In this document: in pieces, positions 1 through 18,861 of the stretch
Position numbering within the stretch: the stretch's first letter is position 1
Layout of the letters: each line of letters opens with the position of its first letter
Source: an uncultured Candidatus Saccharibacteria bacterium
GTDB taxonomy: Bacteria > Patescibacteriota > Saccharimonadia > Saccharimonadales > Saccharimonadaceae
Direction: 5' to 3'
NCBI GenBank assembly: GCA_946646285.1
Contig: CAMPCN010000001.1
Location: 64,233 to 128,232, forward strand
Length of the DNA: 64,000 nucleotides
Translations under genes and position numbers: made by a program
Notes under the pieces: generated by a model
Seen by the model: the letters and a program-made list of their open reading frames with translations, nothing else
The model's database searches: none
What the model was told of the DNA's origin: nothing

Positions 1-789
1 GTTTATTTCTGTCACGGCCTTGTCGTAGGTGGCGCGATCGATGCGAGTAATTGTTTGGCCCTTGGCGCGGCTGAATGATTTGAAAAAATTCTTTGTTTGG
101 GTTACGGCTTTTTCGGCTTCGGATGAAGTGTAGTATGGAATTACAATAAAGAAAGATTTATCCATAATGTTTGCTTCTTGAGACAACTCGTCGATAAAAC
201 CAATATAATCATCCATAAGAATGCCGAGGAGCATATTATCGTTGTCGCGACGGAGTTCGGTTAAGCGATCCAGATAAGGTCCAATATCGACGCGTTGAGA
301 ACGAATAAGGATTTGAATGGTAAAATTCAAGGAGTTTAAGAAGTTTTGATAAGAATATTCAACCGCTTCACGCTCAGTCTCAGACATGAGATCAAAGTTA
401 ATAGATTTACAGGCAACCACAGCCCTAAAGGAACCATCTTTCATAATTACCATTGAGTCGCGTAATTCGGAAATAATTAATGATGCTTGAGTGGAAGTGG
501 GGTTTTCTTTTTGTGTGGTATCGCCGTTGGGGGCTTGTTGTTGTGGAATAGCGGTAGGCTGACCTGCAACTGGTTGACCAGTGACTGGCTGACCCGCGAC
601 TGGCTGACTTGCAATTGGCTGGCCAGCAACCGGTTGACCCGTGACTGGTTGACTTACGATTGGCTGGTCTGCAACTGGTTGGCCCGTGACTGGCTGGTTT
701 ATGATAGGTTGGCCAATAGGTGGCTGAGGAATACCGTTCATAGGTTGTGGGTTTTGCATTGGTAGTGGCTGTGGTTGATTTGGTTGCAC
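1..789 (-). CDS. VirB4/TrbE-like type IV secretion ATPase, N-terminal 263 codons (gene runs off the left edge)
   Basis: Absent from the ORF track because there is no stop in the window. The minus frame is open from GTG at 789-787 (AAGGAG 5 nt upstream) to base 1. A Gln/Pro pentapeptide array is followed by LIISELRDSMVIMKDGSFRAVVACKSINFDLMSETEREAVEYSYQNFLNSLNFTIQILIRSQRVD, which I recognise as the N-domain pattern of Gram-positive-type VirB4 (PrgJ/TrsE). It lies directly downstream of a PrgI-like gene. Confidence 0.55.
   Translation of the reverse strand, partial: MQPNQPQPLPMQNPQPMNGIPQPPIGQPIINQPVTGQPVADQPIVSQPVTGQPVAGQPIASQPVAGQPVTGQPVAGQPTAIPQQQAPNGDTTQKENPTSTQASLIISELRDSMVIMKDGSFRAVVACKSINFDLMSETEREAVEYSYQNFLNSLNFTIQILIRSQRVDIGPYLDRLTELRRDNDNMLLGILMDDYIGFIDELSQEANIMDKSFFIVIPYYTSSEAEKAVTQTKNFFKSFSRAKGQTITRIDRATYDKAVTEIN
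553..720. repeat. 15-bp tandem repeat encoding QPV(T/A)G-type pentapeptides at the N-terminus of the VirB4-like ORF
   Basis: About 10 imperfect copies of gactggctgacccgc-like units. On the minus strand they read GQPVTGQPVADQPIVSQPVTGQPVAGQPIASQPVAGQPVTGQPVAGQP. Confidence 0.85.
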
Positions 790-798
790 GTTAACTCC

Positions 799-1863
799 TT
801 AATGTAGTGAAATATAAACTTCGTCGTCTTTCTTTTCTTTAATACGTTTCGCTTGTTGGGCGATGGTTTCAATGGAGAAGTCTGAGTTGTTGGCGAGATC
901 AATCATATTTTGGTCGGTTTGTTCGGTGACTTCTTTTATTTCTGTCTGACGCTTTTCTTCGGCCTCTTCCTGCTGGATTCTTTCTTGCTCTGCTCTTTCG
1001 GCTTCGATTTCAGCAACCATTGAATCTGGCTTTATGATAGTGTCGTTGTACTTTACGGCTTCATCACTTAGTGGATTACTTGGGACGATTGGTTTCGGTG
1101 CTGAAATTGACGGGTTATTTATGACGGGGTTATCTGGCAATGCAGGCGGTTGAGGCATTGGATATGCCTGAGGCTGTTGCATTGTTTGTGGCTGCGTAGT
1201 CTGTTGTAGTATTTGTTGATTGAGCTGGCCGTTATGATTAGTGATGGTCGTGTTTTGGTTGTGGGCATTATTTTCAATAGCTGCGCGCATTTGACTAATA
1301 GCTAGATCATGGCGTGCCGATGCTCCATCTGTGAGAGTTTGATTGATTAGATTGTTGCTGGCGGTTGTATTCTCGAACATGTCGGGAGTATCGTGAGCTT
1401 CGGCGTAGACTTCTTCTTTTACGCCAGAATTAAGAGTTGTGCCTTTAATAGCGTAACCCTCAGTATCGATAATGTCGGCGAGAAATGAAAGGCGGTGGAG
1501 AGCTTCTTCTTGGTCGATATTTTTAGTGCGGACTTTTTCGGTTTTCTTTGGGGCGGTAATTTTAATAGTCGTCTCTGGCTCGCCTGGCTCCCATGTGCGA
1601 ATATGTGGCTTGAGATAAAAAGATACAACAGCGGACAGATAGGTTTCCATCGGCTGATCTTTCTTTAATGGTAAAGCGAGCGCGCCAAGTAGGATGATTG
1701 GCGGTATTAAGATGACAATAAAAGGTGGAAAAACCTGCCATAATAAAACACCCAAGCCAATAAGACCACCTATAATCATAAGGTAGACGAATTGACGAAA
1801 ACTAAAAGGCCCGAGGAGTTTATCATCGGCCTCTACATCTTGGGGGACCTTATACTGAGCCAT
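799..1863 (-). CDS. PrgI/VirB3-like T4SS membrane protein with a long Q/P-rich and E-rich C-terminal extension
   Basis: The N-terminus AQYKVPQDVEADDKLLGPFSFRQFVYLMIIGGL plus two TM helices and LPLKKDQPMETYL matches the PrgI-family pattern. At 354 aa it is about three times the usual length. Its stop overlaps the SD of the VirB4-like gene. Confidence 0.6.
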   Translation of the reverse strand: MAQYKVPQDVEADDKLLGPFSFRQFVYLMIIGGLIGLGVLLWQVFPPFIVILIPPIILLGALALPLKKDQPMETYLSAVVSFYLKPHIRTWEPGEPETTIKITAPKKTEKVRTKNIDQEEALHRLSFLADIIDTEGYAIKGTTLNSGVKEEVYAEAHDTPDMFENTTASNNLINQTLTDGASARHDLAISQMRAAIENNAHNQNTTITNHNGQLNQQILQQTTQPQTMQQPQAYPMPQPPALPDNPVINNPSISAPKPIVPSNPLSDEAVKYNDTIIKPDSMVAEIEAERAEQERIQQEEAEEKRQTEIKEVTEQTDQNMIDLANNSDFSIETIAQQAKRIKEKKDDEVYISLH

Positions 1864-1869
1864 ACTTAT

Positions 1870-1878
1870 ATTTTAGCA
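1870..1878 (-). promoter_or_regulatory. Extended -10 (TGcTAAAAT) 6 nt upstream of the PrgI-like ATG; leaderless candidate
   Basis: The minus strand reads TGCTAAAAT-ataagt-ATG, with no SD between. Confidence 0.45.
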
Positions 1879-1923
1879 TAATCATTAATTTTTATGGTCA
1901 GTGTAGAAGCATTTTGTAGAGTT

Positions 1924-4731
1924 TTAATCAAGATTTATGCCGAACATTTCGCGAACTTCTTTATTCATGGAGTTGCGTTGGTTAATGGCACTATTCTGAT
2001 TTAGTGCAGCGCGCTGTCTGTCGAATGCGTTATAAAGTTGAGTACTGACACGTACGATGTTTCCGTTTACGTTTCTTTCTATATATTGGTCAGGATGAAT
2101 TTCCAGCAGGGCGCCATTCATGTCTTTTAGGGTGGAACTCTTAGAGCTGACGAGCTGGCTAGCAACCATATTGTTGACGTAGCTCATAATTTGATTCTCA
2201 ATCATGCCTTGGTGAGCATAGAACCAAGCATCCTGTCTTTGATGATTCTTGAACTTACTCATATCAAAGCCACCAGTGAGAAGCGTATTGAGTGTGCCGA
2301 GTTGCTCACCATCCATGAGCCCAGATACGGCGGCGGAGCGAATGTATTTTTCTGGAATTAGGAGTGGGTACTCTTCCCCGTTAGCACCTGTTTGGATTGG
2401 GATAGTGCCATCTTTGATTAACTCGAACATTTCCTTGAATACTGTGCGATCCTGGGAAGCGACTGCTGACCAGCCATTGAGATCGCTAAAGATTTGCTGA
2501 AGCGAGGCTTTTTTAAGCTTATTACTTACAGCAGTGCCATCGTTCGGCATGTTGCCACCAGAAAGAAATGTCTTCATGTCGATGTAAGATTCGATATTAT
2601 TTTCTGGATGGTTAGGGTCGTTGCCATCGCTCATAGCGCGACGAATCATATTAGCTTTTGACCATGCCCAGAGGTATAAGTTTTCTTTCTTGAGGCCTAA
2701 GCCAGTGTCTGCGATAGCTTTTTGCATGGCGAAATCGTTAGATATTTGGTTGGAATTATCAACTAGAGTGCGGATAAGGTCGCCGTGGTCGCCGCGCTTT
2801 GCCATGATAGTTATAGCAGCCGAAGCAGAGTTGTAGTCTTTAGTGTTAAGTGCCTCGATAAACTGTTTCTTGACATAGCCGCCAGCTGGTGAATCGTCAT
2901 AGAGTTCTAGATAATTACTCTTCATCTCGGAGTCGACGCGGCGTTTTTGTGAAATAGCATCAGCAAGAACATCGTTAACTGCGCGTTTGACAGCCAATTC
3001 TTCTGCGCTGCCGGCAACTGGGGAATTATTTTGACGAAAAGCGGCAGTAACTTGATTGTGTATATGATTGTTGACTCGTTGATTTTCATCGCTAAGAGCA
3101 TCGCGTATACGCTTGGCGCGATTTTCCATATTGTTTCGTGCTACGCTGTGTTGGCGCGTTTTTACAATGTGATCATCAATAATAGCATCTTCAAAGGTGC
3201 GGTTGGCGTTGGCAATTCGTGCATTGCGCATATGGCGAACGATCGGGAGTCCGGTTGCTGAGCCATTATCGAAACCTTCATCTATATCAGTTTCAAATTG
3301 AGTACGGGCAATTTGGTTTTGCATTTTACGTGCCTGCATATCCAAGTAGCGAGCGCCGCGTCCGTTTAGTCGTTTACGATCGCGTCCGCTAATCATGCTA
3401 GTAGCAGCTCTCGTCATATAGGTATCTCTATTGTTAGCCGTAGTCTGTTGGAGATCGAATTCGCGATTAGTGCGACGCTGTTCCAACCAACGAGCTAAGC
3501 GGTTGTGTGGAAGTCTATTTGTGCTATTGAGCTGACGTGCGCGGGCGAGTGCTTGCCCTTCAGCGGCACGGCGACGCAATAAGCCAGTGGCAGGATCAGT
3601 AGTGCGGCGGATAAAGTTGCCGATACCGCCAAGGACGGTGCCAGCCATGAGCATGAGTGGTATAGACATAAATAATGGTAGGACTTGGATTGCGATGCCA
3701 AGAACGACACCGAGCCAACTAGTAGCGGAAGTGATTGTTATGAAACCAGCGAGTTGTGCCGCGCCGTATAATACACTAAACATTGGATAAAAGATAATCA
3801 TGCGAGTAAATAATTGATACCAAGTACGGAACCATTTCTCAGTATTTGGGAGAAGGTAACAGACGAAGGCGAATGGTGAAACCATGACAAGTAAGAATAT
3901 GAGTGCTTGGCGAGCGGCCATAGTAATAATAGCTGAGATTACGGCAATTGCGCCTGATAAGATAATAGGAATTAAGAGCCATATAATACCAGTAATGCCT
4001 CCGGCAAAAGTTAGAGCGACCGCGCCGCTCACTGCTCCAATACCTAAGAGGGTGGCAACTATACTGGCGACGGAGGTATTGGCGGCGATTTGGCTAATTG
4101 TGCCCTTTTGGATCGCCTGCTCTTGAATATTCTCGAAGATATTGCGCAAAGATATACCAAAGATATTACTGAGATCTACGGCTACTGTACAGATGGTGTA
4201 ACTAAGATTAATTAAGATTGCGGCAATAACTAAACGCGGTAGCATACGTTTGATACCATAGTTGTTTATGCCGACACCGGTAAGTTGCGAGAAGATGATT
4301 GCCAAGAAGAAAAGCACGAAAATAAGATTGGTGATATTGCGAATATAATCCCAAACGACATGGATTGGCGAGGTTGGATCGTTTGGTATAGGGTCTACTA
4401 ATAATAGGTTATCGAGAACGCCGTATGCTCCGTCAATAATATTAGCTAGAAGTCCAGTACCCGGACAGACTAGCCAGCCGATACCGCCAACTTGATCGTA
4501 GCAGGTTGGATTGTCGGTGGTCTGTTCTGCCGCCGTGGTGCCATTGGTGGCTTCGTCGGTATTCTCTTCTGTGTTTTCGTCGTCTGTAGTGTCTGCGGGA
4601 GTTGTAGTGGAAGTATCTGGGTTTGTAGTGGCCGGATCTGTAGCGGTTGCAAAAACAGGACTACTTATAAGGCTAATGCTCAAAGCAGTAATTAATAGAG
4701 ATAAGGCTATTCTTTTTAACCACCTACCCAT
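1924..4731 (-). CDS. VirB6/TrbL-like polytopic membrane protein with signal peptide, T/D/E-rich linker and ~500-aa soluble C-terminal domain
   Basis: This 935-aa ORF has an N-terminal signal-like helix and a low-complexity TTNPDTSTTTPADTTDDENTEENTDE segment. Roughly 8 hydrophobic helices span aa 130-400. It sits upstream of the PrgI- and VirB4-like genes. Confidence 0.45.
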   Translation of the reverse strand: MGRWLKRIALSLLITALSISLISSPVFATATDPATTNPDTSTTTPADTTDDENTEENTDEATNGTTAAEQTTDNPTCYDQVGGIGWLVCPGTGLLANIIDGAYGVLDNLLLVDPIPNDPTSPIHVVWDYIRNITNLIFVLFFLAIIFSQLTGVGINNYGIKRMLPRLVIAAILINLSYTICTVAVDLSNIFGISLRNIFENIQEQAIQKGTISQIAANTSVASIVATLLGIGAVSGAVALTFAGGITGIIWLLIPIILSGAIAVISAIITMAARQALIFLLVMVSPFAFVCYLLPNTEKWFRTWYQLFTRMIIFYPMFSVLYGAAQLAGFITITSATSWLGVVLGIAIQVLPLFMSIPLMLMAGTVLGGIGNFIRRTTDPATGLLRRRAAEGQALARARQLNSTNRLPHNRLARWLEQRRTNREFDLQQTTANNRDTYMTRAATSMISGRDRKRLNGRGARYLDMQARKMQNQIARTQFETDIDEGFDNGSATGLPIVRHMRNARIANANRTFEDAIIDDHIVKTRQHSVARNNMENRAKRIRDALSDENQRVNNHIHNQVTAAFRQNNSPVAGSAEELAVKRAVNDVLADAISQKRRVDSEMKSNYLELYDDSPAGGYVKKQFIEALNTKDYNSASAAITIMAKRGDHGDLIRTLVDNSNQISNDFAMQKAIADTGLGLKKENLYLWAWSKANMIRRAMSDGNDPNHPENNIESYIDMKTFLSGGNMPNDGTAVSNKLKKASLQQIFSDLNGWSAVASQDRTVFKEMFELIKDGTIPIQTGANGEEYPLLIPEKYIRSAAVSGLMDGEQLGTLNTLLTGGFDMSKFKNHQRQDAWFYAHQGMIENQIMSYVNNMVASQLVSSKSSTLKDMNGALLEIHPDQYIERNVNGNIVRVSTQLYNAFDRQRAALNQNSAINQRNSMNKEVREMFGINLD

Positions 4732-4843
4732 AGCTATTTAATTATATCACACATAAGCTTTTTAGTCAAGTATTATGCTGTCTATTAAGTTAGAAATCCA
4801 ATTATACACTACCCCATAATTAATTGCGAATGCTTATGTTATA

Positions 4844-5359
4844 ATGTGTGTATATAATTATATGTTTGGATTAATGAAAGCTAAACAAAAGAGTTCGGTT
4901 GTAAGAGTTGGGTTATTATTGGTAGCCTTATTAGCCAGCGTCTTTTTTGTTGGAGGTACGGCTTGGGCGGATAGTGGTGAATACTTTGGCTTTTTAGATA
5001 TAAAGATTGCTCCAGATAATAATAAAAAATGCGCAACTGTCTTGAGCTTTTGGTGTGACGATGCGGAAAATGATGGCGAAGCTACTATAAAAGATATTAT
5101 TATTTTCGCTATATCGATTCTATCTGTAGGTATTGGGTTATTGGCGACAATTGGTTTTATAATTTGCGGCTATATGATTATGACGGCAAAGGGGAATGAT
5201 GGGCAAGTTGCTCTAGCGAAAAAACGTATGGTAGAGATAGTAATAGGTATCGTATTGTGGGCGGCGGGCGCTTTGCTGCTTGTCTTATTTATTCCAGATG
5301 AAGAAACCCCTGGTTATGTAAATAGCGGTGCTATTATAAAAATTAAGGAGATAAAATGA
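4844..5359 (+). CDS. T4SS pilin-like (VirB2/TrbC-type) paralogue 1
   Basis: It has a signal/TM region, a Cys pair (KCATVLSFWCDD), then LLATIGFIICGYMIMTAKGNDGQVALAKKRMVEIVIGIVLWAAGALLLV. The start is uncertain; ATG 4874 (MKAKQK...) is plausible because -10-like boxes overlap 4840-4858. Confidence 0.6.
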   Translation: MCVYNYMFGLMKAKQKSSVVRVGLLLVALLASVFFVGGTAWADSGEYFGFLDIKIAPDNNKKCATVLSFWCDDAENDGEATIKDIIIFAISILSVGIGLLATIGFIICGYMIMTAKGNDGQVALAKKRMVEIVIGIVLWAAGALLLVLFIPDEETPGYVNSGAIIKIKEIK

Positions 5360-6084
5360 AGAAAAAGTTACTGATATTGCTGATGGGATTGAGCATGGTT
5401 TTTGCTCAGTTGCTAGTTGCTCCTATCGCGATTGCTGAGGGGGGTAATGCTGGTGGTAATAGTGGTGGCGATAGTGGTAATAATTCTGGCGGTACGGGTT
5501 TTGGAAATGCGACATGCCCAAAAACGCATTTTATGGGGTTGCGCGCTTGGTACGATGGCGAGCTTCTAAATAATGTAGTTTGTGGAGGTGAGCAACCGGC
5601 GAACGAGGGTGAAATTCGTCAGCTTGTCTGGATGATTGTATTAAATATTGCGACGATGGTGCTCCAGATTGCAGGCTATGTTTGTGTTGGCTTTGTGATA
5701 TGGGGTGGTTATCAGTATATGTTGGCGCGAGGTGATAGCGGAAAGGTTGCTAATGGTAAGAAAACGATTACTAATGCTTTGATTGGCATTGTAATCTGCG
5801 TGACGGCTTCATTGATATCTGGGGCAATTGTAGATATTGCTTCAGGTGCAGCAAACGATGCGAACTTCTTTGCGGAAATATTTAATCACGCATTTATGTG
5901 GGCTGGTATTGTCTGTGCGGTAGTGATGGTGATTGGCGGTATTTCGTATGTAACGAGTGTCGGCGACTCTGGAAAAGTGCAAAAAGCAAAAAACACAATT
6001 ATGTACGCGGCGATTGGTCTTGTTATTACCCTGCTCGCGGCGGCGATTGTTAATTTGGTTGTATCAGCCGTTAATGGTGGCTAG
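5356..6084 (+). CDS. T4SS pilin-like paralogue 2, tandem double pilin module
   Basis: Two copies of the module are present. The first is VGFVIWGGYQYMLARGDSGKVANGKKTITNALIGIVICV and the second is VMVIGGISYVTSVGDSGKVQKAKNTIMYAAIGLVITLLAAAIVNLV. The start forms an ATGA overlap with the upstream gene. Confidence 0.7.
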   Translation: MKKKLLILLMGLSMVFAQLLVAPIAIAEGGNAGGNSGGDSGNNSGGTGFGNATCPKTHFMGLRAWYDGELLNNVVCGGEQPANEGEIRQLVWMIVLNIATMVLQIAGYVCVGFVIWGGYQYMLARGDSGKVANGKKTITNALIGIVICVTASLISGAIVDIASGAANDANFFAEIFNHAFMWAGIVCAVVMVIGGISYVTSVGDSGKVQKAKNTIMYAAIGLVITLLAAAIVNLVVSAVNGG

Positions 6085-6089
6085 AGGTA

Positions 6090-7757
6090 ATGATGAAGAA
6101 AATAATTATCGTTTTTGCCGTTATTGTATTGTCGATAATATCTTGTCTGGGTATTAAAAATGTGACTTTTGCGCATCAGTCCGCTTGTGGCGTGGCTGGA
6201 TTTAATGATCCGTTAGTCTGTGGTTACGGAAAAGGGGCAAATGAGGTTGCCCTGGAAAATAGAATAAGAAATATTTTAAATACCGTATATCTTTGGATTG
6301 GTATTATTGCCGTCATTGTAATAGTGATAGGCGGGATATTTTACATGATTTCGGCTGGTGATACGAATAAAATAGCGGGTGCAAAAAATGCTATCATGTA
6401 TGCCATTATCGGATTAGTGGTGGCTTTGGCGGCGTTTGCTATTACGAATTTGGTAATAGGTGCACTTGATGGGCAAGCCCCAGCTGGCGGAGGGGGCGGG
6501 TCTGGCCAGAATACCGTTCCGGCTACTCCGCGACCGTCAACTGAGGAGCAATGGCAAATTAGCGCGGTTAGTTTGTCGAAGCGAACTATAGTAATGGATA
6601 TTGGCGATACAGAAACGATAAAAGCAGAAGTTTATCCGAAAAACGCGGTGGATACTTCTATAACATGGTCGTCGGATAATGGAAAAGTGGCAACCGTTGA
6701 TCAAAGTGGCAAAATTGTGGCAAAAAGTAGTGGTAAAGCGACTATTTCGGCAACCAGCAGAAACGGCGTCGCCGATAAGGCCATAGTAACCGTAAATGAT
6801 CCGGCAAAAAAGGAAGAATCTGGAACAGGAACTCCTAGTACCCCGTCGACACCGAGTACGCCTAGTAACCCTAGTGGCTCTACGAAAGTAACACTAACTG
6901 TGGGTTCTACGTCAATTCTAGATGAGCATACAACTACGGCAAAGGTTACTGGCAATAAAGGTGTTGTAAGATGGTCGTCAAGTAATAGTGCGGTAATGAC
7001 GGTAAACTCTAATGGCGTAGTTACAGGCAAAAAGCCTGGGACTGCTACTTTGACGGCTAAGACTTTAGATGCAAAGAGCAACAGTGTCACGCTAACCAAG
7101 AGTATTACAGTGCGGGAAATAAAGATACTATGGGTTGGGAATAGTAAGACTTACGTGGAAGATATTGATAAGAAAGCGGCTGAAATGCTGAAGGGACGTG
7201 GCTATAGCGTTAATACGACAAGAGTAACTAAAGGCGGAAAATCTTTGAAGTGGAATTATACGAATCAAGGAACGAATATTAAGAAATACTACGACTACGT
7301 CGTTTTACAGGAGCGGACTGGATCTGCTAAAAGTGAGAGCCAATTTTACGACGGGGCTCTTGCAATAGCTAAGGCAGTAAAGGCAAAAAATAGCGACGTA
7401 AGAGTATACGTACGTAAAGTTTGGTACTTAAGGGATTCTAGTACCAGCACTAGAGATACTGTAAATAAAATAGCAACAAATGTAGCTCGTAAAATTGCCT
7501 TAAACGCTGGAGTTTTTTCGGATACGACTGATGATGGTGATGCTCTATATAAACTTAAAGCGAGTGGGCGTAAAGCTTTTAAGGATGATCGGCATCAGAG
7601 TAAAATGGGAGCCTACACGGCAGCAGCCTGTATTGTTTCGAAAATGTTTAAAATCGATCCGACGACTATTACATATATTCCTGGAAGCTTCTCTTCGTCT
7701 GAGAAAAACTCTTTAAGCGCATTGAAGTCAATAGCCAAGCAGGAATGTTATAATTAA
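6090..7757 (+). CDS. Pilin module - Gly linker - 2x Big_2 Ig-like - SGNH/GDSL-like esterase fusion protein
   Basis: The N-terminal pilin module is VIVIGGIFYMISAGDTNKIAGAKNAIMYAIIGLVVALAAFAITNLV. Two Big_2-like repeats follow (ITWSSDNGKVATVDQSGKIVAKSSGKATISA and VRWSSSNSAVMTVNSNGVVTGKKPGTATLTA). The C-terminal domain carries ILWVGNSKTY (block I Ser) and KDDRHQSKMGAY (DxxH). Confidence 0.7.
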   Translation: MMKKIIIVFAVIVLSIISCLGIKNVTFAHQSACGVAGFNDPLVCGYGKGANEVALENRIRNILNTVYLWIGIIAVIVIVIGGIFYMISAGDTNKIAGAKNAIMYAIIGLVVALAAFAITNLVIGALDGQAPAGGGGGSGQNTVPATPRPSTEEQWQISAVSLSKRTIVMDIGDTETIKAEVYPKNAVDTSITWSSDNGKVATVDQSGKIVAKSSGKATISATSRNGVADKAIVTVNDPAKKEESGTGTPSTPSTPSTPSNPSGSTKVTLTVGSTSILDEHTTTAKVTGNKGVVRWSSSNSAVMTVNSNGVVTGKKPGTATLTAKTLDAKSNSVTLTKSITVREIKILWVGNSKTYVEDIDKKAAEMLKGRGYSVNTTRVTKGGKSLKWNYTNQGTNIKKYYDYVVLQERTGSAKSESQFYDGALAIAKAVKAKNSDVRVYVRKVWYLRDSSTSTRDTVNKIATNVARKIALNAGVFSDTTDDGDALYKLKASGRKAFKDDRHQSKMGAYTAAACIVSKMFKIDPTTITYIPGSFSSSEKNSLSALKSIAKQECYN

Positions 7758-7768
7758 TTAAAGAGGTA

Positions 7769-8077
7769 ATGATGGATAAGATATTTTTTCTAATAACAGG
7801 CAACGCTCCTACCGACCCATCCAAACAAGTGACGCAGGTTGACGGTGGTGGCACAAACTTACAAACTACGGTTAATAATGTATTGTCAGTAGTATTTACG
7901 TTGGTGGGCGTAATCGCAGTTATTGTAATTATTATTGGTGGTGTTTATTACATTACATCGAACGGTGATGCTGAAAAAATAAAGAAAGGTAAAAATACTA
8001 TAATGTACGGTATTATTGGCCTGATTGTTACTCTTTTAGCATTCGCTATTGTGTCGTTTGTGCTTAATTCGTTCTAA
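7769..8077 (+). CDS. T4SS pilin-like paralogue 4 (minimal, 102 aa)
   Basis: VIVIIIGGVYYITSNGDAEKIKKGKNTIMYGIIGLIVTLLAFAIVSFVLNSF. Confidence 0.75.
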   Translation: MMDKIFFLITGNAPTDPSKQVTQVDGGGTNLQTTVNNVLSVVFTLVGVIAVIVIIIGGVYYITSNGDAEKIKKGKNTIMYGIIGLIVTLLAFAIVSFVLNSF

Positions 8078-8154
8078 ATTTATTTACAAATAAGCATAGT
8101 GGTGTGATAAAATTAAACTAAAGTTTTTTCGTTATTAATAAAGGAGAAATACGA

Positions 8155-8640
8155 ATGAAAACAATTAATAAAATAATAAAGGTGGCGGTCTTGGCGATCT
8201 TTAGCGTCGTATTGCTCGGTGGTCCAATTTTCGCTATAGACGAATGTATAGGTGAGGGTAAGAAATATCCAAATCTGTCTACTAGCGAGGGTATATATTG
8301 TCAACGCATTAAGGTTGGCGATGAATATGTTTCCATCTATGGCAAGACATCGGCTGATTGTGCACAGGCTGGTACGTTAGCGTCTGATCCGGATAGCTGT
8401 AATGGTGACGACCTTAATGACATGGTTAAAGTAATAATTAATACTATCATCTTTGTTGTGGGTATGGTTGCTGTTATTATGGTGATTCTTGGTGGCGTTA
8501 GCTATGCTACTTCCCAAGGTGACACTACGAAGGTTAAGAAAGGTAAAGACACGATTCTTTATGGTATTATCGGTCTCGTAATCGCCATTTTGGCTTACGC
8601 TATTGTTAACTTCATACTTGCCGCTCTTACTAACGGTTAA
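8155..8640 (+). CDS. T4SS pilin-like paralogue 5 (4-Cys variable ectodomain)
   Basis: Signal peptide and Cys-containing variable region, then VIMVILGGVSYATSQGDTTKVKKGKDTILYGIIGLVIAILAYAIVNFILA. GGAGAAATACGA precedes the ATG. Confidence 0.75.
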   Translation: MKTINKIIKVAVLAIFSVVLLGGPIFAIDECIGEGKKYPNLSTSEGIYCQRIKVGDEYVSIYGKTSADCAQAGTLASDPDSCNGDDLNDMVKVIINTIIFVVGMVAVIMVILGGVSYATSQGDTTKVKKGKDTILYGIIGLVIAILAYAIVNFILAALTNG

Positions 8641-8663
8641 TATACGAAAAAACAACTTCTCTT

Positions 8664-8693
8664 AAAGCACCTCTTCTAGGGGGTGCTTTTTTT
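8664..8693 (+). terminator. Rho-independent terminator
   Basis: AAAGCACC / GGTGCTTT stem followed by a T-run. Confidence 0.7.
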
Positions 8694-8740
8694 GGGTAGT
8701 TTATGTTATTATGATTTATAGATAAGGAGATTATTACATA

Positions 8741-9175
8741 ATGAGCAAAACAAAGGAAATCGCGAAAGAGGCAGGTGCAGCTTTGACTATCGCGGCGTTG
8801 ACTATTTCTACGCAAGGCGTTAGTGTATTTGCTGGCGGTAATACTGCTGGCGGTTCTGATGGCGGTGGAGGCAATGGGGGGGCTGGCTCAGCGGGCGAGA
8901 ATGCGCGTGCTGGTGTTTCCAATGTAAACCCAGGTGCAAATACGGACTTAATGTCAATGATCCAGACGATTTTGAATGTCGTTTTTGGTATCATCGGTAT
9001 TGTTGCGGTAATTATGATTATAATTGGCGGCGTAAATTACACTACGTCGCAGGGCGATAGCGCTAAGTTGCAAAAAGCGAAAAATACAATTATGTACGGT
9101 ATCATCGGTTTAGTGGTTGTATTGCTCTCATTTGCAATAGTGAGCTTTGTTCTAAACGGTCTTATTGGTGGATAG
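8741..9175 (+). CDS. T4SS pilin-like paralogue 6 (Gly-rich variable region)
   Basis: GGNTAGGSDGGGGNGGAGSAGE region, then VIMIIIGGVNYTTSQGDSAKLQKAKNTIMYGIIGLVVVLLSFAIVSFVLN. AAGGAG lies upstream. Confidence 0.75.
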   Translation: MSKTKEIAKEAGAALTIAALTISTQGVSVFAGGNTAGGSDGGGGNGGAGSAGENARAGVSNVNPGANTDLMSMIQTILNVVFGIIGIVAVIMIIIGGVNYTTSQGDSAKLQKAKNTIMYGIIGLVVVLLSFAIVSFVLNGLIGG

Positions 9176-9193
9176 AGGGTAACTCGAGTAACT

Positions 9194-9224
9194 ATACCTC
9201 CCCTTTTAGTGGGAGGTATTTTTG
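9194..9224 (+). terminator. Rho-independent terminator
   Basis: 9-bp stem ATACCTCCC / GGGAGGTAT, 8-nt loop and T-run. It overlaps the GTG start proposed by the ORF track for the next gene. Confidence 0.7.
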
Positions 9225-9241
9225 TATGTTATGATAAATGT

Positions 9242-9619
9242 ATGGGTATAAAAAACAAAAAAATTAATAAAACTATCTTTTGTTTCGGCTTAATGATTAG
9301 TAATTTGTTAATTTGTAGTAATACTTTTGCTGAAACGCCGAGTTATTATGCGCGCGAAGGAGCAAGTTCAATCGTAGTCCCAGATGGGCCAGATATAATG
9401 ACAATAATAAAAAACTTGCTAAATACTACGTTTGGAGTTGTAGGTATTATAGCGGTAGTTATGATGATTATTGGTGGTTTCTACTATATGACATCGCAAG
9501 GATCGCCAGAGAGAGTACAGAAAGGTAAAAATACAATTCTGTACGGTATAGTGGGTTTAATAATTGTCCTGTCTGCTTTCGCAATTGTAAACTTTGTGTT
9601 AAGCAGTTTGTTGGGTTAA
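9242..9619 (+). CDS. T4SS pilin-like paralogue 7
   Basis: VVMMIIGGFYYMTSQGSPERVQKGKNTILYGIVGLIIVLSAFAIVNFVLS. The start is moved to ATG 9242 because 9209-9224 is a terminator hairpin. Confidence 0.7.
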   Translation: MGIKNKKINKTIFCFGLMISNLLICSNTFAETPSYYAREGASSIVVPDGPDIMTIIKNLLNTTFGVVGIIAVVMMIIGGFYYMTSQGSPERVQKGKNTILYGIVGLIIVLSAFAIVNFVLSSLLG

Positions 9620-9641
9620 TTATTATTTTTTTGTGAGAATC

Positions 9642-9669
9642 AAAAAATCGCCGTTTCGGGCGATTTTTT
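9642..9669. terminator. Bidirectional terminator between convergent pilin 7 and hsp20
   Basis: AAAAAATCGCC-gtttcg-GGCGATTTTTT. Confidence 0.7.
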
Positions 9670-9678
9670 GGTGATTAT

Positions 9679-10197
9679 TTAATTAATCGTAATGCGTTTT
9701 GGAGCTTCAGTCTTTTCCTTTTCGAAGGAGATAGTAAGGACGCCATCCTTTAGGACTGCCTCTACGCCATCTTCTTTAACTTGTACTGGGAGGGCGATAG
9801 TGCGGCTAAATTCTCCCCAATAACATTCTTGAATATGCCATTGGGTAGCTTTATCGTCTTCCCCACCGTTAAGAACGCCAGAAATGGTAAGGATATTGTC
9901 AGAAATTGAAACGTCAAGATCCTTGCGTTCAATGCCAGCGGTGCGAGCTTTGATGATTAATTTATCGTTTGTTTCGTAAACATCTACAGCTAGCTGACCT
10001 GGAATGTCATCTGCGCTATCATCCCAACCGTCGCCGTCGTCGACATATTCTTCTTCGACGATGGCAGTTTCTTCAACTGGAGTGTTGACTGGAGTTTCCA
10101 CCGGTTCCTCTTCTGCAACTAGTCCAGAGTTATCGCCCTCTAAAAAGGCAGCTGTGAGCTCATCGTCTAAGCTCATTTCGTCTTGTTTGCGAGCCAT
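9679..10197 (-). CDS. Hsp20/alpha-crystallin small heat-shock protein with acidic N-terminal extension
   Basis: Alpha-crystallin core: LAVDVYETNDKLIIKARTAGIERKDLDVSISDNILTISGV ... FSRTIALPVQVKEDGVEAVLKDGVLTISFEK. Confidence 0.9.
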   Translation of the reverse strand: MARKQDEMSLDDELTAAFLEGDNSGLVAEEEPVETPVNTPVEETAIVEEEYVDDGDGWDDSADDIPGQLAVDVYETNDKLIIKARTAGIERKDLDVSISDNILTISGVLNGGEDDKATQWHIQECYWGEFSRTIALPVQVKEDGVEAVLKDGVLTISFEKEKTEAPKRITIN

Positions 10198-10285
10198 TGT
10201 TTTATATAACCTCCACTAATTTACACTCTTAAGCTTTATTATATGTATGTTTATTCTTAAAATCAAGAAAAATGGAGGTTTTGTT

Positions 10286-10954
10286 GTGAAAAATACAATA
10301 CGTGTATCAATTGGTGATATATTGTGTCCTTATTCCTGTATTTCCTGTGGAAAAGTTGGTGGAATACTATGCGATTGTTGTAAAAAATACATCATGTCGA
10401 ATGATTATTGAAAATGTTTATGTTGCGACGGCAATCTAAAGAACAATCAATGCGAACGCTGCGTGCTTCCTTTTTGTGATCAATTTTGTTTAGGAAAAAG
10501 GATGGGATTATTAAAAGATTTAATAAATATATATAAGTATAAATCAGTGCGCGTCTGCGCGGAAACTTTTGCTTATTTGCTAAGAGAAAAGTACGGTCTG
10601 TTCCTTGAGGGAAAAATTGTAGTACCTTTACCTACGATTAGTAAGCATATCCGCGAACGTGGCTTTGATCATATGGCGTTTTTGGCAAAAAGAATTGCAT
10701 ATGTTTGTGGCGGCAAGTGAGAAAAAGTATTAAAGCGAGTTGGAAATACCGTACAGGTTGGCGCAGATGAGATGGTGCGTAAAAAACAAGCATTAGGCGC
10801 ATATAGTGTTACTAATAGGGTTAATTTTGATGCACGGTATGTCTTAATTGATGACGTATGGACTACTGGCAGTAGTATGATGGCTGCATGTTCGGAGCTC
10901 CAAAAAGCTGGAGTGGAAAAAATCTCGGTAGTTTTGCTTGCTAAAAGTGAGTAA
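10286..10954 (+). pseudogene. comF: ComF-family (phosphoribosyltransferase-type competence protein) reading frame interrupted by two in-frame TGA codons
   Basis: One frame runs from GTG 10286 (GGAGG 7 nt upstream) to TAA 10954. It carries CxxC...CxxC zinc-finger cysteines, LPTISKHIRERGFDH and the PRTase motif YVLIDDVWTTGSS. In-frame TGA codons lie at 10409-10411 and 10718-10720. Confidence 0.75.
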
Positions 10955-10956
10955 AA

Positions 10957-11355
10957 TTAAACAGTAGTAGAGCCGCCAACGGCGCTGATCACGAAGTTGA
11001 CTATTGCGTATGAAAGGATGGCGATAATTAGGCCGATGATGGCATACATAATAGTGTTTTTGGCGTCGGTAACTTTTTTACTGTCGCCTCCAGAGATGAT
11101 ATAGCGTAAGCCGCCATAGATGAGCATTACGACAGATATGATACCTACAGCGAAAAGAATGGTGTTTGTAATGCGAGTAAAAACGCCGGAAGCTCCGATT
11201 AGTTCGGCCGGCATGCCATTGCCGCGAGCAGCGTCAGCACCAGCTTGAGCTGGATTATCATAATTCATGGCGGCCATTGCGCGACCTGCAAAAAGCGTCG
11301 CGGTAGTTGCAGCGCCAGTGAGAACTTGCCCTGTTTTTTCGATTAATTTTTTCAT
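10957..11355 (-). CDS. T4SS pilin-like paralogue 8 (isolated, opposite strand)
   Basis: VVMLIYGGLRYIISGGDSKKVTDAKNTIMYAIIGLIIAILSYAIVNFVISAV. Confidence 0.75.
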   Translation of the reverse strand: MKKLIEKTGQVLTGAATTATLFAGRAMAAMNYDNPAQAGADAARGNGMPAELIGASGVFTRITNTILFAVGIISVVMLIYGGLRYIISGGDSKKVTDAKNTIMYAIIGLIIAILSYAIVNFVISAVGGSTTV

Positions 11356-12772: not shown

Positions 12773-15700
12773 GTGATAAAGAAGGCTGTTTTATTATTGA
12801 TTTTAGTTGCAGCTGCGCTTGGGGTTGAGATTGCGGTCATTTCTAAAGATAATGTAGGCCTTTTTGGCAATAATGTAAGTAGCAATACTGGCGCACTGGC
12901 GGCAAGTTCTAATACCAAAATCGTCGGCTATAACGCAGATGGTATTTGTGATGCCGTGAAAACCAATAAGGATTTGAGGATTGGTATCAGGGGTTATTAT
13001 GATAGCAAAAGATATTATTTTAATTCGCCTACTGATACATGTAATAATATGTCGACATACACTATAAGAGAGAGTCAGATTAAAAAAGGTGAGGCATATG
13101 TGCGTTATGGGAGGGCGGCGCGGTCGAGTAAAATATATGCAGATGATGTTTTGGTCAAGAATGCTAATAGCTACGGGAGTCGAGCGTATTTCTTTGTTTC
13201 GAATCGGCCGAAGACGGGTATGGGAGACTCTTTGAATTCGTTGAAGCCGGGCGAGAAGACGTTCCTATATCTTGATGTTAGCGGTAAAGGAGTTAGGAGT
13301 AATACGTATGGGGACTTGCGGCTTTTTGTGGTGTATGGAAAATCAGTAGCCGCTGCTGACGTTACGACGTATAGGACAATCGACACCGATATTGCGGCGT
13401 ATAATTCGATTGCTTTTTTTGTTCATACAAATAAAAGTACATATGGTCCATATGCGATGGCGGATGCGGAATATGATAACTATTATAGAGAACAGTCCTC
13501 CGATGGCAGTAATAAGATAATTACTACATATAAGCTGATTTCGAAGAATCTAGTAGGGGGGATACCGGCGGGCGAGGCTATTAAAGGGATAGAGATATAT
13601 CCGTATTATAACTACCCGATCACAAAGGGGCTTTTTAGGCTGTTTAGTTTGTCGCTCTATGGGTACAGCTCATATGGGGGTGGAAAAAGTTATGTAAGTG
13701 TGAATGGGGCGGAGGATGCGATTAGGCACAATGTAGTGAATAATATGCTTGAGAATGCCACGGTAAAGTGGAATATGTCCGGCGGCACGACTTTGCATTT
13801 CTATCACCACTACGTAACGGAGCCGATTATAATAAAGCCTAGCAGCAAACAGAATTATTACGGCATTCCATATGTGAATACAGTTAAATCGACAATTGGA
13901 CAATTTACGCATTATGGTACGGTGAATGATGTCGCGACGGCAAAGAAGAAAAACACGGCATATTTTTCTTATAAGTTAGCAGACACTTTTCAGGCTACAG
14001 TTACAAGTAATCACGGAAAGACGTTCAATGCTGGAAGTGCAATTCCAAACAAAACATTATATATAAATGAAGCATATGAAAAGAACGACAAGATAGGGAC
14101 GAGAAAAACCGAATTGCAAAATGGAAACCTCCAGTTTATTCGTAATTCGTTTGGTTTGAAGGGTGATGGCTATTACCTAGGCCTTGATTGTAGCTCGTCG
14201 ATTTATTTGGCCGTCGGTAGAGATGTGGCGACATTAAGTCCGATGGCGGACTCGGGTAGGTACTTCAGTAATGGGCAGGTATCCATGTTGGGTGGATTGA
14301 GTGTTTCTGCTGATAAGGTGGAAAAGTACCTGCGCAAAAAAGGTTCATTGAAGAATAGCCAGCATATGACCAGTGAAATGTATAAGTCGAACTATTCGAC
14401 GTATATCAAGACCACTTATGGTAATCAGAAGATTTATAACGGATATGCATTGGCGTTGCCGGGTGATATTATCGATGTGTATGGTCACGTGAGGATGGTG
14501 TCTGGATATAGCCATGTCGTGTGCAAAAAGGATGGTGTTTCGACAGATAAATACAAGAATGGTTTTTGCGACGCGCATGGTGGAATAAATCCAGATAAGA
14601 GTTATGTCATTACGACGGAGGTTGGCACTCGCCATCAGAAAGTATACCAGAGAGATGCAACGCATATCGCGGCTTCTAAGACGGGCTGGAAATATACCCT
14701 GAATCCTCAGTTGACGGATTTGAAGTCAGTAGATGATCTTTACAATAAGAATAAAGGGCTGTTATCGATTTTCAAGGTTAATTTGAAATATTCGTTTACT
14801 TCCCTGTTTAATTCCAATTACTATGCTTTTAGATATAAAAATATAACGAATTATATTGCGAAGAACAAAATTGAAAAACCAGTTGCCAGGTTGGCTTTAG
14901 ATAAGTCTTATAATAACTTGAATCAGACTTTGTATGATTATTTTGCGAATAATAAGAGACTAAAAGGTACGTTGTTTACGAATTATGTTATTGACGCGAT
15001 TAGAGTTGAGATAAATGGCACAACGTATTATGAATATCCAAGACAAACGACAATATTTTCGTTCTATTCTGATATTACGAATACGAAGATTACGAATGCG
15101 ATAAAGAACCTTAATTATAAGAATAAGAATTCAATCAAAATTAGCGTAAAATTTGGACCAAACATTAGTGCCGTTAGGACGGCAGCGGGGGCGGATAGTA
15201 GTGGATATATCAAAATTCTGGATACGACGAATTTAACGGCAAATATCATCGTTAAATCCACTAGTGTAAAGTTGAATAAGACGAGCTTATCGGTGTTGAC
15301 CGGAAAGACAACTTCTCTGACGGCGACGGTTGTACCCTCAAGTACGACGAATAAGGCCGTGACTTGGACGAGTAGCAATACTAATGTAGCAACGGTTAGC
15401 GCGAGCGGCATTGTAAAAGGAGTGGGTAATGGAAAAGCGATAATCACAGTAAAGACTAATGATACGGGAAAAACAACGACGGCAACGGTTACGGTGACGA
15501 CGGCCGTGACTAGTGTAAAGCTATCGAAAACGAGCACCACAATTAATACTGGCAAGACTGAAAAGTTAGAGGCTATCGTTTCGCCGAAAGCGGCATCAAA
15601 CAAGACCGTGACTTGGAAAAGTAGCAACACGAGTGTAGCGACGGTTACTAGTGTGGGAATAGTAACAGCGAAGGGCGTCGGCACAGCAACGATTACGGCG

Positions 15701-16876
15701 ACAACGAATGATGGTGGAAAGAGCGCTTCGGCGACCGTGACCGTCGTAAAGCCTACAGTCAGTGTGACTGGTATTAAAGTATCGAAGACTAGCATAAGTT
15801 TGTTGATTGGGGCGACAGAAAAGATTACGGCGACAGTGAAGCCGTCGAACGCAACGAATAAGGCTGTAACTTGGACGAGTAACAATACGAGTGTGGCAAC
15901 TGTTACCGGTGAGGGGACAATAGTGGCGGAAGGGGTCGGCACAGCAACGATTACGGCGACAACGAATGATGGTGGAAAGAAAGCAACCGTAAGTGTTACA
16001 GTCTCGCCGATTAGAGTGCAATCGATAACGTTGAGCAAGAATAGTGCAACATTAGAGGTGGGTGAAACGAGTCAGATTAGTGCTACGGTTTCGCCGTCGA
16101 ATGCAACGAATAAGGCTGTAACTTGGATGAGTAGCAACACGAGTGTAGCGACGGTTACTAGTGTGGGGATAGTGACAGCGAAGGGCGTCGGCACAGCAAC
16201 GATTACGGCGACAACGAATGATGGTGGAAAGAAAGCAACCGTAATCGTGACGGTGTTTAGCAATGAAATAATTAAGGACAACGGTGGTACTGAAGACGAA
16301 GCGGCAGATGATGATATTGACGCGATTCCCACTGCGAACATAAAGCTTAATACGGCGAGTGCGACAATTAATGTTGGCAGTACAGTGACCTTAACCGCTA
16401 CGGTTACGCCGTCGAATGCAACGAATAAGGCTGTAACTTGGATGAGTAGCAACAGCAATGTTGCAACCGTAAGCGCATCTGGTGTCGTAAAGGGTGTATC
16501 TGTCGGTACAGCGACAATTACAGTAAAGACCAATGACGCCGGCAACTCGGCAATGGCAACAATAACGGTGGAAAAGTCTTCATCGAAGCCGTCTGGGGGC
16601 GGCAGTGACGGCGGTTCGGGAAATTTCGATGAGAATTCTGAAGGAAACGGGGACTCTGGTGGTCCTGGCGGGAATGGTGGTTCGGGAAATTTCGATGAGA
16701 ATTCTGAAGGAAACGGGGACGGGAATGGTAACCCTGACAATAGTGGCGGCGAGAATGATGTTGAAAATGGCCCGATGGGTAGCGTGAGCGAGATGGTGCG
16801 AGTAGTTGTTGTGTCCTTGATTGCAGTTACCCTGATTGGTGGCGGTGTGCTATTTGTGCTCAATAAGCGGAAGTAA
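12773..16876 (+). CDS. Giant surface protein: N-terminal anchor/signal, ~800-aa unknown region with candidate Cys/His hydrolase motifs, 5x Big_2 Ig-like repeats, GS/GN-rich repeat, C-terminal TM anchor
   Basis: 1367-aa ORF with five ~85-aa repeats carrying NKAVTW(T/M)SSNT(S/N)VATV...G(T/K)A(T/I)IT. Candidate catalytic motifs are GLDCSSSIY (Cys at 14189-14191) and PGDIIDVYGHVRMVSG (His at 14486-14488). The C-terminus VVVVSLIAVTLIGGGVLFVLNKRK looks like a TM anchor. Confidence 0.75.
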   Translation: MIKKAVLLLILVAAALGVEIAVISKDNVGLFGNNVSSNTGALAASSNTKIVGYNADGICDAVKTNKDLRIGIRGYYDSKRYYFNSPTDTCNNMSTYTIRESQIKKGEAYVRYGRAARSSKIYADDVLVKNANSYGSRAYFFVSNRPKTGMGDSLNSLKPGEKTFLYLDVSGKGVRSNTYGDLRLFVVYGKSVAAADVTTYRTIDTDIAAYNSIAFFVHTNKSTYGPYAMADAEYDNYYREQSSDGSNKIITTYKLISKNLVGGIPAGEAIKGIEIYPYYNYPITKGLFRLFSLSLYGYSSYGGGKSYVSVNGAEDAIRHNVVNNMLENATVKWNMSGGTTLHFYHHYVTEPIIIKPSSKQNYYGIPYVNTVKSTIGQFTHYGTVNDVATAKKKNTAYFSYKLADTFQATVTSNHGKTFNAGSAIPNKTLYINEAYEKNDKIGTRKTELQNGNLQFIRNSFGLKGDGYYLGLDCSSSIYLAVGRDVATLSPMADSGRYFSNGQVSMLGGLSVSADKVEKYLRKKGSLKNSQHMTSEMYKSNYSTYIKTTYGNQKIYNGYALALPGDIIDVYGHVRMVSGYSHVVCKKDGVSTDKYKNGFCDAHGGINPDKSYVITTEVGTRHQKVYQRDATHIAASKTGWKYTLNPQLTDLKSVDDLYNKNKGLLSIFKVNLKYSFTSLFNSNYYAFRYKNITNYIAKNKIEKPVARLALDKSYNNLNQTLYDYFANNKRLKGTLFTNYVIDAIRVEINGTTYYEYPRQTTIFSFYSDITNTKITNAIKNLNYKNKNSIKISVKFGPNISAVRTAAGADSSGYIKILDTTNLTANIIVKSTSVKLNKTSLSVLTGKTTSLTATVVPSSTTNKAVTWTSSNTNVATVSASGIVKGVGNGKAIITVKTNDTGKTTTATVTVTTAVTSVKLSKTSTTINTGKTEKLEAIVSPKAASNKTVTWKSSNTSVATVTSVGIVTAKGVGTATITATTNDGGKSASATVTVVKPTVSVTGIKVSKTSISLLIGATEKITATVKPSNATNKAVTWTSNNTSVATVTGEGTIVAEGVGTATITATTNDGGKKATVSVTVSPIRVQSITLSKNSATLEVGETSQISATVSPSNATNKAVTWMSSNTSVATVTSVGIVTAKGVGTATITATTNDGGKKATVIVTVFSNEIIKDNGGTEDEAADDDIDAIPTANIKLNTASATINVGSTVTLTATVTPSNATNKAVTWMSSNSNVATVSASGVVKGVSVGTATITVKTNDAGNSAMATITVEKSSSKPSGGGSDGGSGNFDENSEGNGDSGGPGGNGGSGNFDENSEGNGDGNGNPDNSGGENDVENGPMGSVSEMVRVVVVSLIAVTLIGGGVLFVLNKRK
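15250..16575. repeat. Five ~252-258-bp coding repeats (Big_2 units) with long near-identical DNA stretches
   Basis: The 44-mer gtcggcacagcaacgattacggcgacaacgaatgatggtggaaag occurs exactly at 15677, 15935 and 16187. Units 2 and 4 share ~115 bp at roughly 95% identity. Confidence 0.85.
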
Positions 16877-18565: not shown

Positions 18566-18575
18566 GTGTTCTCCT

Positions 18576-18830: not shown

Positions 18831-18861
18831 GAATTTCCTCCTAATACTTTGTTATGATTTC

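Follow-up and report, generated by a model that had tools for sequence, protein, structure and literature searches.

A 64,000-nucleotide stretch of DNA from an uncultured Candidatus Saccharibacteria bacterium (contig CAMPCN010000001.1, positions 64,233 to 128,232; the whole stretch is hereafter called the window) carries at its left end what is, with a probability of about three in four as judged by homology and gene order, the right-hand half of a chromosomal, oriC-proximal type IV secretion system (T4SS) of the Saccharibacteria (Patescibacteria). Eight pilin-like open reading frames (ORFs), labelled P1 to P8, accompany it. The lineage of the locus probably goes back to monoderm conjugation machines of the mating-pair formation class FATA (MPF-FATA) that lost their DNA-processing module. 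The original prediction had described an island in which a VirB4/PrgI/VirB6 core faces an array of VirB2-like pilins, and had favored host contact over conjugation. A T4SS core with expanded pilins is supported, and host contact, in agreement with the identical published reading of the Saccharibacteria T4SS, appears preferable to conjugation. Because the T4SS, its pilin arrays, its missing relaxase and the non-conjugative reading were already published between 2023 and 2025, that prediction is a rediscovery. The present analysis adds the contrast between a conserved outlying pilin and a diverging array, a conserved tandem pilin, fusions of pilins to immunoglobulin (Ig)-like and enzyme domains, and a VirB4 that is more conserved than DnaA.

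Three ORFs lie on the minus strand at the left end of the window, encoding proteins of 935 aa (1924-4731) and 354 aa (799-1863) and a third that runs from 789 past the left edge; seven plus-strand ORFs (4844-9619) point away from them. The ORF map agrees with the coordinates originally proposed. The last two features below lie in the nearest genome, L003 (JAZQCP010000009.1, Candidatus Nanosyncoccaceae), whose proteins are 95-98% identical to those of the window; other related loci are given L numbers in the same way.

1-789, minus strand: TrsD/TraC-like protein, first 263 codons; stand-alone homologue of the VirB4 N-terminal domain (NCBIfam TrsD, E=3.4e-8, below the family's full-length cut-off)
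799-1863, minus strand: PrgI/VirB3-like membrane protein, 354 aa (PF12666, 42.3 bits against a cut-off of 27, residues 5-90)
1924-4731, minus strand: putative extended VirB6/TrbL_3-like polytopic membrane protein, 935 aa (precomputed PF19590, Foldseek, topology)
4741-4843, no strand: intergenic region from which the VirB6 operon and the pilin array diverge; promoter-like hexamers on each strand
4844-5359, plus strand: P1, divergent member of the pilin-like paralogues, its module (aa 81-154) preceded by a signal peptide and a Cys-pair ectodomain (PF18895, 21.7 bits, E=2e-4, below cut-off; TrbC, E=1.2e-3)
5356-6084, plus strand: P2, tandem pilin with Gly-rich, Cys-pair ectodomain and modules at aa 86-162 and 167-239 (PF18895, 79.4 bits, two stretches)
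6090-7757, plus strand: P3, pilin module at aa 54-126 with two Big_2 Ig-like domains and a C-terminal SGNH/DUF4886-like domain (PF18895, 36.8 bits; Big_2, 77.2 bits; DUF4886, E=1.5e-3)
7769-8077, plus strand: P4, minimal pilin of 102 aa, ectodomain nearly absent (PF18895, 53.8 bits; NF045849, 57.3 bits)
8155-8640, plus strand: P5, pilin with four-Cys ectodomain (PF18895, 39.4 bits; TrbC, 27.0 bits, E=5e-6)
8741-9175, plus strand: P6, pilin with Gly-rich ectodomain (PF18895, 50.2 bits; NF045849, 49.4 bits)
9209-9619, plus strand: P7, pilin (PF18895, 52.2 bits; TrbC, 30.0 bits against a cut-off of 27.9; NF045849, 53.9 bits)
10957-11355, minus strand: P8, outlying pilin (PF18895, 42.2 bits)
L003 11861-14647: membrane protein of 928 aa directly downstream of VirB4 (no family match)
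L003 14644-16515: three-domain hydrolase of 623 aa (Phage_lysozyme2, E=8e-23; weak GDSL and NlpC/P60)

Nine copies of one two-helix module of about 70 aa are spread over the eight pilin-like ORFs (4844-9619, plus strand; 10957-11355, minus strand). In the nine-copy alignment the module starts with a short amphipathic lead-in, and two hydrophobic helices joined by a loop follow. When all six frames of the 64 kb were scanned with a hidden Markov model built from the nine modules, these nine came back and no other match was better than E=0.3, which bears out the proposed count of eight paralogues and nine modules. The shared motif holds as a loop consensus, GG-x2-Y-x-TS-x-GD-x2-K-x2-K-[GA]-K-N-T-I-x-Y, and fails as the exact string first suggested, only five alignment columns being invariant. 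Seven of the eight ORFs pass the gathering score (26.6 bits) of the Pfam family T4SS_pilin (PF18895) at 36.8-79.4 bits, P1 falling below it. Cross-matches to TrbC/VirB2 (PF04956, cut-off 27.9) range from E=6e-7 to 1e-3 and rise above the cut-off for P7 only (30.0 bits); the profile relationship to VirB2-like pilins thus came out as anticipated. P2, P4, P6 and P7 additionally match NF045849, the Mbov_0395 family of pilin-like conjugal transfer proteins from Mycoplasma integrative and conjugative elements (ICEs), at 48-57 bits against a cut-off of 40. A tblastn search with P4 against 72,556 plasmids gave no match.

Most of the pilins begin with a Sec-type signal peptide, followed by the two hydrophobic helices and a short basic loop, as seen in a hydropathy scan and the sequences themselves; a clear signal peptide was not seen on P4, and P1 has three hydrophobic segments. 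The AlphaFold2 (AF2) model of P4 shows helix 31-62, a loop and helix 68-101. The parts N-terminal to the module share neither sequence nor length, as had been noticed at the outset: those of P2 and P6 are Gly-rich, those of P1, P2, P3 and P5 contain Cys pairs, and P4 has nearly none. The C-terminal domain of P3 carries the motifs GNS (aa 350-352) and DDRH (aa 499-502).

P1 to P4 are translationally coupled or 5-11 nt apart. Terminator-like hairpins lie 3' of P5 (8664-8689) and P6 (9194-9219), and a strong hairpin (9639-9672) closes the array after P7, the true start of which is likely the ATG at 9242. The promoter-like sites of the divergent intergenic region, both identified by pattern match only, are at 4769-4741 on the minus strand (TTGACT-17-TATAAT, 11/12, with a TG extension) and at 4791-4820 on the plus strand (9/12). 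P8, apparently monocistronic, adjoins a tRNA-Ser gene and has a promoter-like pattern match upstream (11419-11391, 10/12).

The 1-789 ORF had been taken for the VirB4 ATPase itself. It is instead a TrsD-like homologue of the VirB4 N-terminal domain, matching VirB4_CagE profile positions 16-151, with a precomputed PF26593 (TraC-like) assignment and no nucleoside triphosphatase domain. The complete protein extends about 200 nt beyond the left edge of the window and has 319-329 aa in L001 (contigs with an identical PrgI) and 309 aa in L003. The ATPase is the next gene, just outside the window; it encodes 598 aa and starts at an ATGA overlap with the TrsD-like stop codon. In L003 (10001-11797) it scores 393.9 bits on the conju_CD1110 model (cut-off 325; profile positions 173-732) and has the Walker A motif GAGKS. 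Since the TrsD-like protein covers VirB4 profile positions 16-177 and the ATPase positions 173-732, the two are complementary, and VirB4 is split. At its N-terminus the TrsD-like protein has Pro/Gln-rich pentapeptides of the GQPV[AT] type, encoded by a tandem repeat with a 15-nt period (557-696, minus strand), and its length varies by strain, from 329 aa in L001 and the window lineage to 309 aa in L003.

The 354-aa protein was correctly recognized as PrgI-like by its PF12666 score; its hydrophobic N-terminal PrgI domain (segment 48-66) is followed by a Gln/Pro- and Glu-rich C-terminal extension of about 260 aa. For the 935-aa protein there is moderate evidence that it is an extended VirB6, in keeping with the initial assignment. 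After a signal peptide it has an acidic ectodomain that contains a conserved Cys loop; about 6-7 transmembrane helices (126-365) and a very basic segment come next, and a helical C-terminal domain of about 435 aa, probably cytoplasmic, completes the protein. PF19590 (TrbL_3) is precomputed on a 99%-identical database protein and on the syntenic gene of L088. The best Protein Data Bank (PDB) matches of its AF2 model (48 homologues; mean predicted local distance difference test score 72.9) are R388 TrwI/VirB6, with E=0.011-0.2 and probabilities of 0.95-1.0. A PDB sequence-profile search with the 48 homologues returned nothing relevant, an exact database look-up of the sequence found no record, and a literature search for PF19590 found no paper.

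Past VirB4, the gene order in L003 is the 928-aa protein, the 623-aa hydrolase, a 304-aa single-pass protein, recF, dnaN and dnaA, the last about 10 kb beyond the virB4 start and about 10-11 kb left of base 1 of the window. The 928-aa protein and the hydrolase are probably the wall-breaching part of the machine.

A VirB4 scan of 185,579 species genomes yielded 582 relatives, and the best 80 of these 582 are almost all labelled Saccharibacteria or Nanosyncoccaceae, many from ruminant gut. Wherever the flank suffices, the recurrent layout is VirB6, PrgI, TrsD, VirB4, then 3-7 pilin genes in a divergent array, hsp20, comF and an opposite-strand pilin, a gene order shared by more than 60 related genomes. 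Because the same order recurs in dozens of Nanosyncoccaceae genomes, the locus is, on the strength of its synteny, a core chromosomal one rather than the mobile island first proposed. Relaxase, coupling protein and integrase had no Pfam match among the ORFs of the window and about 10 kb of L003 flank (about 75 kb in all), and no repeat boundaries were found in the window and 10 kb; the claimed absence of relaxase and coupling protein thus extends to the left flank of the nearest genome. GC content is even along the window, and GC skew is positive in all of its 2-kb bins (0.11-0.41), which is consistent with the whole window being on a single replichore beside oriC.

For copy number and N-terminal variability, proposed as points to compare across relatives, the comparison shows arrays of 3-7 pilin genes and array ectodomains that are 10-54% identical; the eight genes and nine modules of the window are at the top of the relatives' range of pilin counts. 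More specifically, between positional orthologues of four species the array pilins have ectodomains 10-54% and modules 30-79% identical, whereas P8 has a length of 132-133 aa, an ectodomain 60-83% identical and a module 82-90% identical. Across L004-L015 the identity of P8 is 74-87% and that of the array pilins 30-65%. P8 is thus the best conserved paralogue, and its length and position are constant across relatives. A two-module gene is kept at the P2 position, the VirB6-proximal end of the array, in most related loci (reciprocal best hits), and orthologues of P1 are confined to the closest 14 loci.

Median identity across related loci is 85% for VirB4, 72% for TrsD, 60% for DnaN, 56% for RecF and 49% for DnaA, and 35-52% for PrgI, VirB6, the 928-aa protein and the array pilins. 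VirB4 is therefore better conserved than DnaA, DnaN and RecF within the same genomes (L003 10001-11797 versus 17442-21250 and the counterparts in L004-L082); these loci were picked by VirB4 score, and the within-genome contrast still stands. In comparisons of the window with L003, the ratio of nonsynonymous to synonymous differences (pN/pS) lies at 0.06-0.18 for P1-P3 and P5-P7; for P4 it is 0.48, on five substitutions. By this measure the pilins are under purifying selection within the species. DNA identity between pilin paralogues is only 60-74%, over at most 100 nt. Together with the low pN/pS, this indicates that the paralogues are old, intact and maintained rather than recombining cassettes.

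The domain architecture of P3 is not confined to this genome. In a database search, fusions of T4SS_pilin to Big_2 and a variable C-terminus (DUF4886/SGNH, Peptidase_C39_2, GH43, NlpC/P60, YkuD or esterases) turned up in at least 51 protein clusters of Saccharibacteria. Such fusions lie within T4SS pilin arrays in the window (P3), L003 and L088. No mention of pilins fused to Ig or enzyme domains was found in the available text of the 2025 survey PMC12102498 or of other T4SS papers, nor did the available text of that survey describe a conserved tandem pilin or a conserved outlier alongside a fast-diverging array.

Beyond the T4SS, the other 52 kb of the window hold housekeeping and surface protein genes, including those for GroEL, a serpin, Mur ligases, a von Willebrand factor A (VWA) protein, ValRS, TsaD, DnaE and GAPDH, and an Rfam scan of the window found four tRNAs only. 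Large surface or secreted proteins are encoded beside the T4SS: one of 1367 aa with five Big_2 domains and a C-terminal transmembrane anchor (12773-16876), a 659-aa serpin (19390-21369) and a 997-aa VWA/TSP3-repeat protein (22754-25747). For GroEL and the serpin the synteny extends to L088. Two adjacent plus-strand ORFs of 468 and 1569 aa (39718-41124 and 41159-45868) have no Pfam match at E<=0.001. Next to P8, a comFC-like gene of the phosphoribosyltransferase-type competence family (10247-10954, plus strand) is interrupted by in-frame TGA codons at 10409-10411 and 10718-10720, its pieces remaining in one frame. Among relatives, an in-frame stop lies two codons away from the second TGA site in L008 and L009 and near the first in L014, and in L088 only a 76-aa fragment is called. 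From these sequences the gene looks to be decaying rather than recoded; genome-wide recoding of TGA was ruled out, as TGA is the stop codon of 5 of 47 window genes.

The published accounts describe closely similar systems. According to Wang et al. 2023 (PMC10633639), Candidatus Southlakia epibionticum has an essential, Gram-positive-like T4SS and a series of essential pilin genes, without recognizable coupling or relaxase proteins, for which a non-conjugative role was proposed; essentiality for epibiotic growth was established by transposon sequencing in S. epibionticum only. As in strain ML1 of that species (SEML1_0006-0019), the cluster described here is chromosomal and near the genome start, with pilins inside it and peptidase/lysozyme genes downstream of virB4. 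It differs in having eight genes and nine modules instead of six pilins, including the tandem pilin and the pilin-Ig-esterase fusion, and in its family, Nanosyncoccaceae, known from gut- and rumen-type metagenomes. Quiñonero-Coronel et al. 2025 (PMC12102498) report 441 VirB2 arrays of 2-11 genes from 383 assemblies with a mean identity of 25%, together with TrsD, PrgI/VirB3 and VirB6 in Patescibacteria, rare relaxases and dnaA nearby. The present locus resembles their Patescibacteria-clade T4SS in its TrsD beside VirB4, PrgI-type VirB3, VirB6, VirB2 array, absent relaxase and nearby dnaA/dnaN. Its membership in that clade is indicated by an MPF-FATA-type VirB4, an adjacent TrsD-like protein, PrgI/VirB3-like and (on moderate evidence) VirB6-like proteins, pilins less than 12 kb from virB4, a chromosomal position near dnaA and a cluster in which, over about 75 kb, neither relaxase nor coupling protein was found. 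The same survey suggests that the pilin was perhaps co-opted from diderm systems; the NF045849 matches imply a pilin-like gene in at least one MPF-FATA lineage, which weakens the need for such borrowing. A 2025 review gives the same account of the T4SS, and a 2024 perspective calls its role completely unknown and floats nucleotide or DNA acquisition. A preprint on a novel pilus system in the candidate phyla radiation (CPR) was set aside, as it concerns Ig-fold Pam pili, an unrelated system.

With the MPF-FATA T4SSs of monoderms (pCF10 Prg, the CTn2 CD1110 family, pGO1 Trs) the locus shares a CD1110-model VirB4, PrgI, TrsD, a VirB6-like protein, a wall hydrolase and the lack of VirB7/9/10. Those systems are mobile, have a relaxase and a type IV coupling protein (T4CP) as well as adhesins, and generally have no pilin, whereas the present locus is chromosomal and has pilins; in addition, its VirB4 N-terminal domain is a separate gene, unlike theirs. 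A likeness to the T4SS of Mollicutes ICEs (Mbov_0395, Mbov_0397) is seen in the four pilins passing NF045849 and in a VirB4 score of 271 bits on the Mbov_0397 model NF045975, although this is below the model's cut-off of 590, and Mollicutes ICEs are mobile. To our knowledge, these elements have a single pilin-like gene each. The vir T4SSs of Bartonella, Anaplasma and Rickettsiales likewise have several divergent VirB2 genes beside a host-interaction T4SS, but these are diderm MPF-T systems with a VirB7-10 core and eukaryotic targets, whereas the locus described here has heterologous ectodomains and enzyme fusions.

A mechanism can be proposed for the machine. Sec-type pilins would enter the membrane as helical hairpins whose short basic loop lies on the cytoplasmic side, and the VirB4 motor would extract and assemble them on a VirB6/VirB3 platform into a short pilus or conduit across the cell wall, accompanied by local wall hydrolysis. 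The variable N-terminal ectodomains, together with the C-terminal Ig domains and putative esterase of P3, would face outward. The resulting structure may contact the envelope of the host bacterium and support the exchange needed for epibiotic growth. P8 would be the candidate main structural subunit, and the array paralogues would be stably maintained, lineage-specific accessory subunits. It is from the homology, linkage and conservation of the parts that we infer pilus formation and host contact.

Two other explanations of the locus are disfavored by its genomic record. It is extremely improbable that it represents an integrated conjugative or mobilisable element. Its VirB4 is of the MPF-FATA conjugative type and a tRNA-Ser lies beside P8, but neither relaxase, T4CP, integrase nor repeat boundaries were found in the window and 10 kb, the locus stands beside dnaA/dnaN/recF in a synteny kept in dozens of species, the GC content is uniform, and DnaA is less conserved than VirB4; a mobile element was ruled out on this context. 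Cassettes for antigenic or phase variation, with paralogues that recombine or alternate in expression, are very unlikely as well. Such variation would fit the strong differences of the ectodomains between paralogues and species, and PMC12102498 draws a parallel with the VirB2 paralogues of Bartonella and Anaplasma, which it reads as surface diversification. However, the low identity between paralogues leaves no long identical tracts for gene conversion, all copies are intact with low pN/pS, positional orthologues persist across species, and P1-P4 are coupled or nearly so. Paralogue DNA identity and pN/pS together ruled out this possibility.

The main rival, itself unlikely, is that the modules do not polymerise and are instead two-helix anchors, or parts of an inner-membrane channel, that display ectodomains or enzymes, the array being co-regulated with the T4SS. 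Several of the observations that it draws on also weigh against a pilus. Apart from those in pilin arrays, T4SS_pilin-Big_2-enzyme fusions occur singly among housekeeping genes, remote from any T4SS, so the module could be a mere membrane anchor. Foldseek of the pilin model against the PDB returned non-specific helical hairpins, every one at E>1, and does not discriminate between the model and helical hairpins in general: the top hit is the ATP synthase c-subunit, and the Aeropyrum pernix conjugative pilus 8dfu comes ninth (TM 0.52/0.61, E=3.2, not significant). The pilin sequence profile found no solved VirB2/TraA pilin among PDB sequences; its only hits, a MacB transmembrane segment and profilins, were judged spurious. 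Monoderm T4SSs are generally pilus-less according to the literature, which reports no pilus of T4SS_pilin proteins from any Patescibacterium and gives the Patescibacteria filaments solved to date as type IV pili and Pam pili, and Mycoplasma ICEs, with no known pilus, have the related pilin-like family NF045849. The case for the machine itself is also tempered by the lack of any match of the VirB6-like protein in current Pfam and NCBIfam scans, by the only moderate Foldseek E of 0.011, and by the candidate role of P8, which conservation alone suggests. A coupling protein may be encoded elsewhere in the genome, VirD4 homologues being distant from virB4 in many Patescibacteria in the account of PMC12102498. 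Against simple anchors, the module belongs to a curated VirB2-related family with direct TrbC/VirB2 cross-matches, P4 is nearly all module with nothing to display, the linkage of pilin genes to virB4/virB6 is tight and universal, and the array is essential in S. epibionticum (PMC10633639).

Alternatively, the machine could face inward and import host DNA, nucleotides or other macromolecules, by analogy with archaeal Ced and Helicobacter pylori ComB, which have VirB4/VirB6/VirB2-like parts and no relaxase or coupling protein; this, too, is rather unlikely. The Ced system belongs to monoderm cells; it lacks a relaxase and a T4CP but has a VirB2-like pilus along with an ATPase and a membrane protein that resemble VirB4 and VirB6, respectively. 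The inventory of the present locus is comparable, with VirB4, VirB6-like and VirB3-like proteins and VirB2-like pilins and with no relaxase or T4CP found in the window and L003 flank; the neighboring comFC-like gene seems to have decayed, both here and in relatives, and an archaeal conjugative/Ced-type pilus is among the weak structural matches given above. The literature names the T4SS as a candidate route of nucleotide acquisition, competence being dispensable. The locus VirB4, however, scores just 50.9 bits on CedB (cut-off 700) and 25.5 on CedD (cut-off 600), which for CedB amounts to generic VirB4 homology only and sets the locus apart from Ced in these two components. The wall hydrolase and enzyme-bearing pilin would suit both directions.

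The host-contacting T4SS remains the preferred reading, and a more speculative version of it is conceivable, though improbable in its entirety. The T4SS_pilin module would be a portable handle, with a P8-based filament decorated by stably inherited, lineage-specific array pilins, some of them bearing Ig spacers and envelope-active enzymes, which would be an SGNH-type esterase in this genome and GH43, NlpC/P60, YkuD and C39-like peptidases elsewhere in the Saccharibacteria. Such a pilus might deliver wall-modifying enzymes to the host and open a conduit for exchange, possibly including import, and the stand-alone fusions would be further clients.

The locus does not represent a new kind of system. 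It belongs to a T4SS on which epibiotic growth depends in the single species examined so far and whose role is described in the literature as completely unknown. What the present comparison offers are handles on that role: P8 as a core-pilin candidate as against the fast-diverging yet maintained array pilins, the tandem pilin and the conservation of VirB4, while the pilin-Ig-enzyme fusions would point to action on the cell envelope. These handles could guide deletion, proteomic and cryo-electron microscopy work in cultivable relatives.

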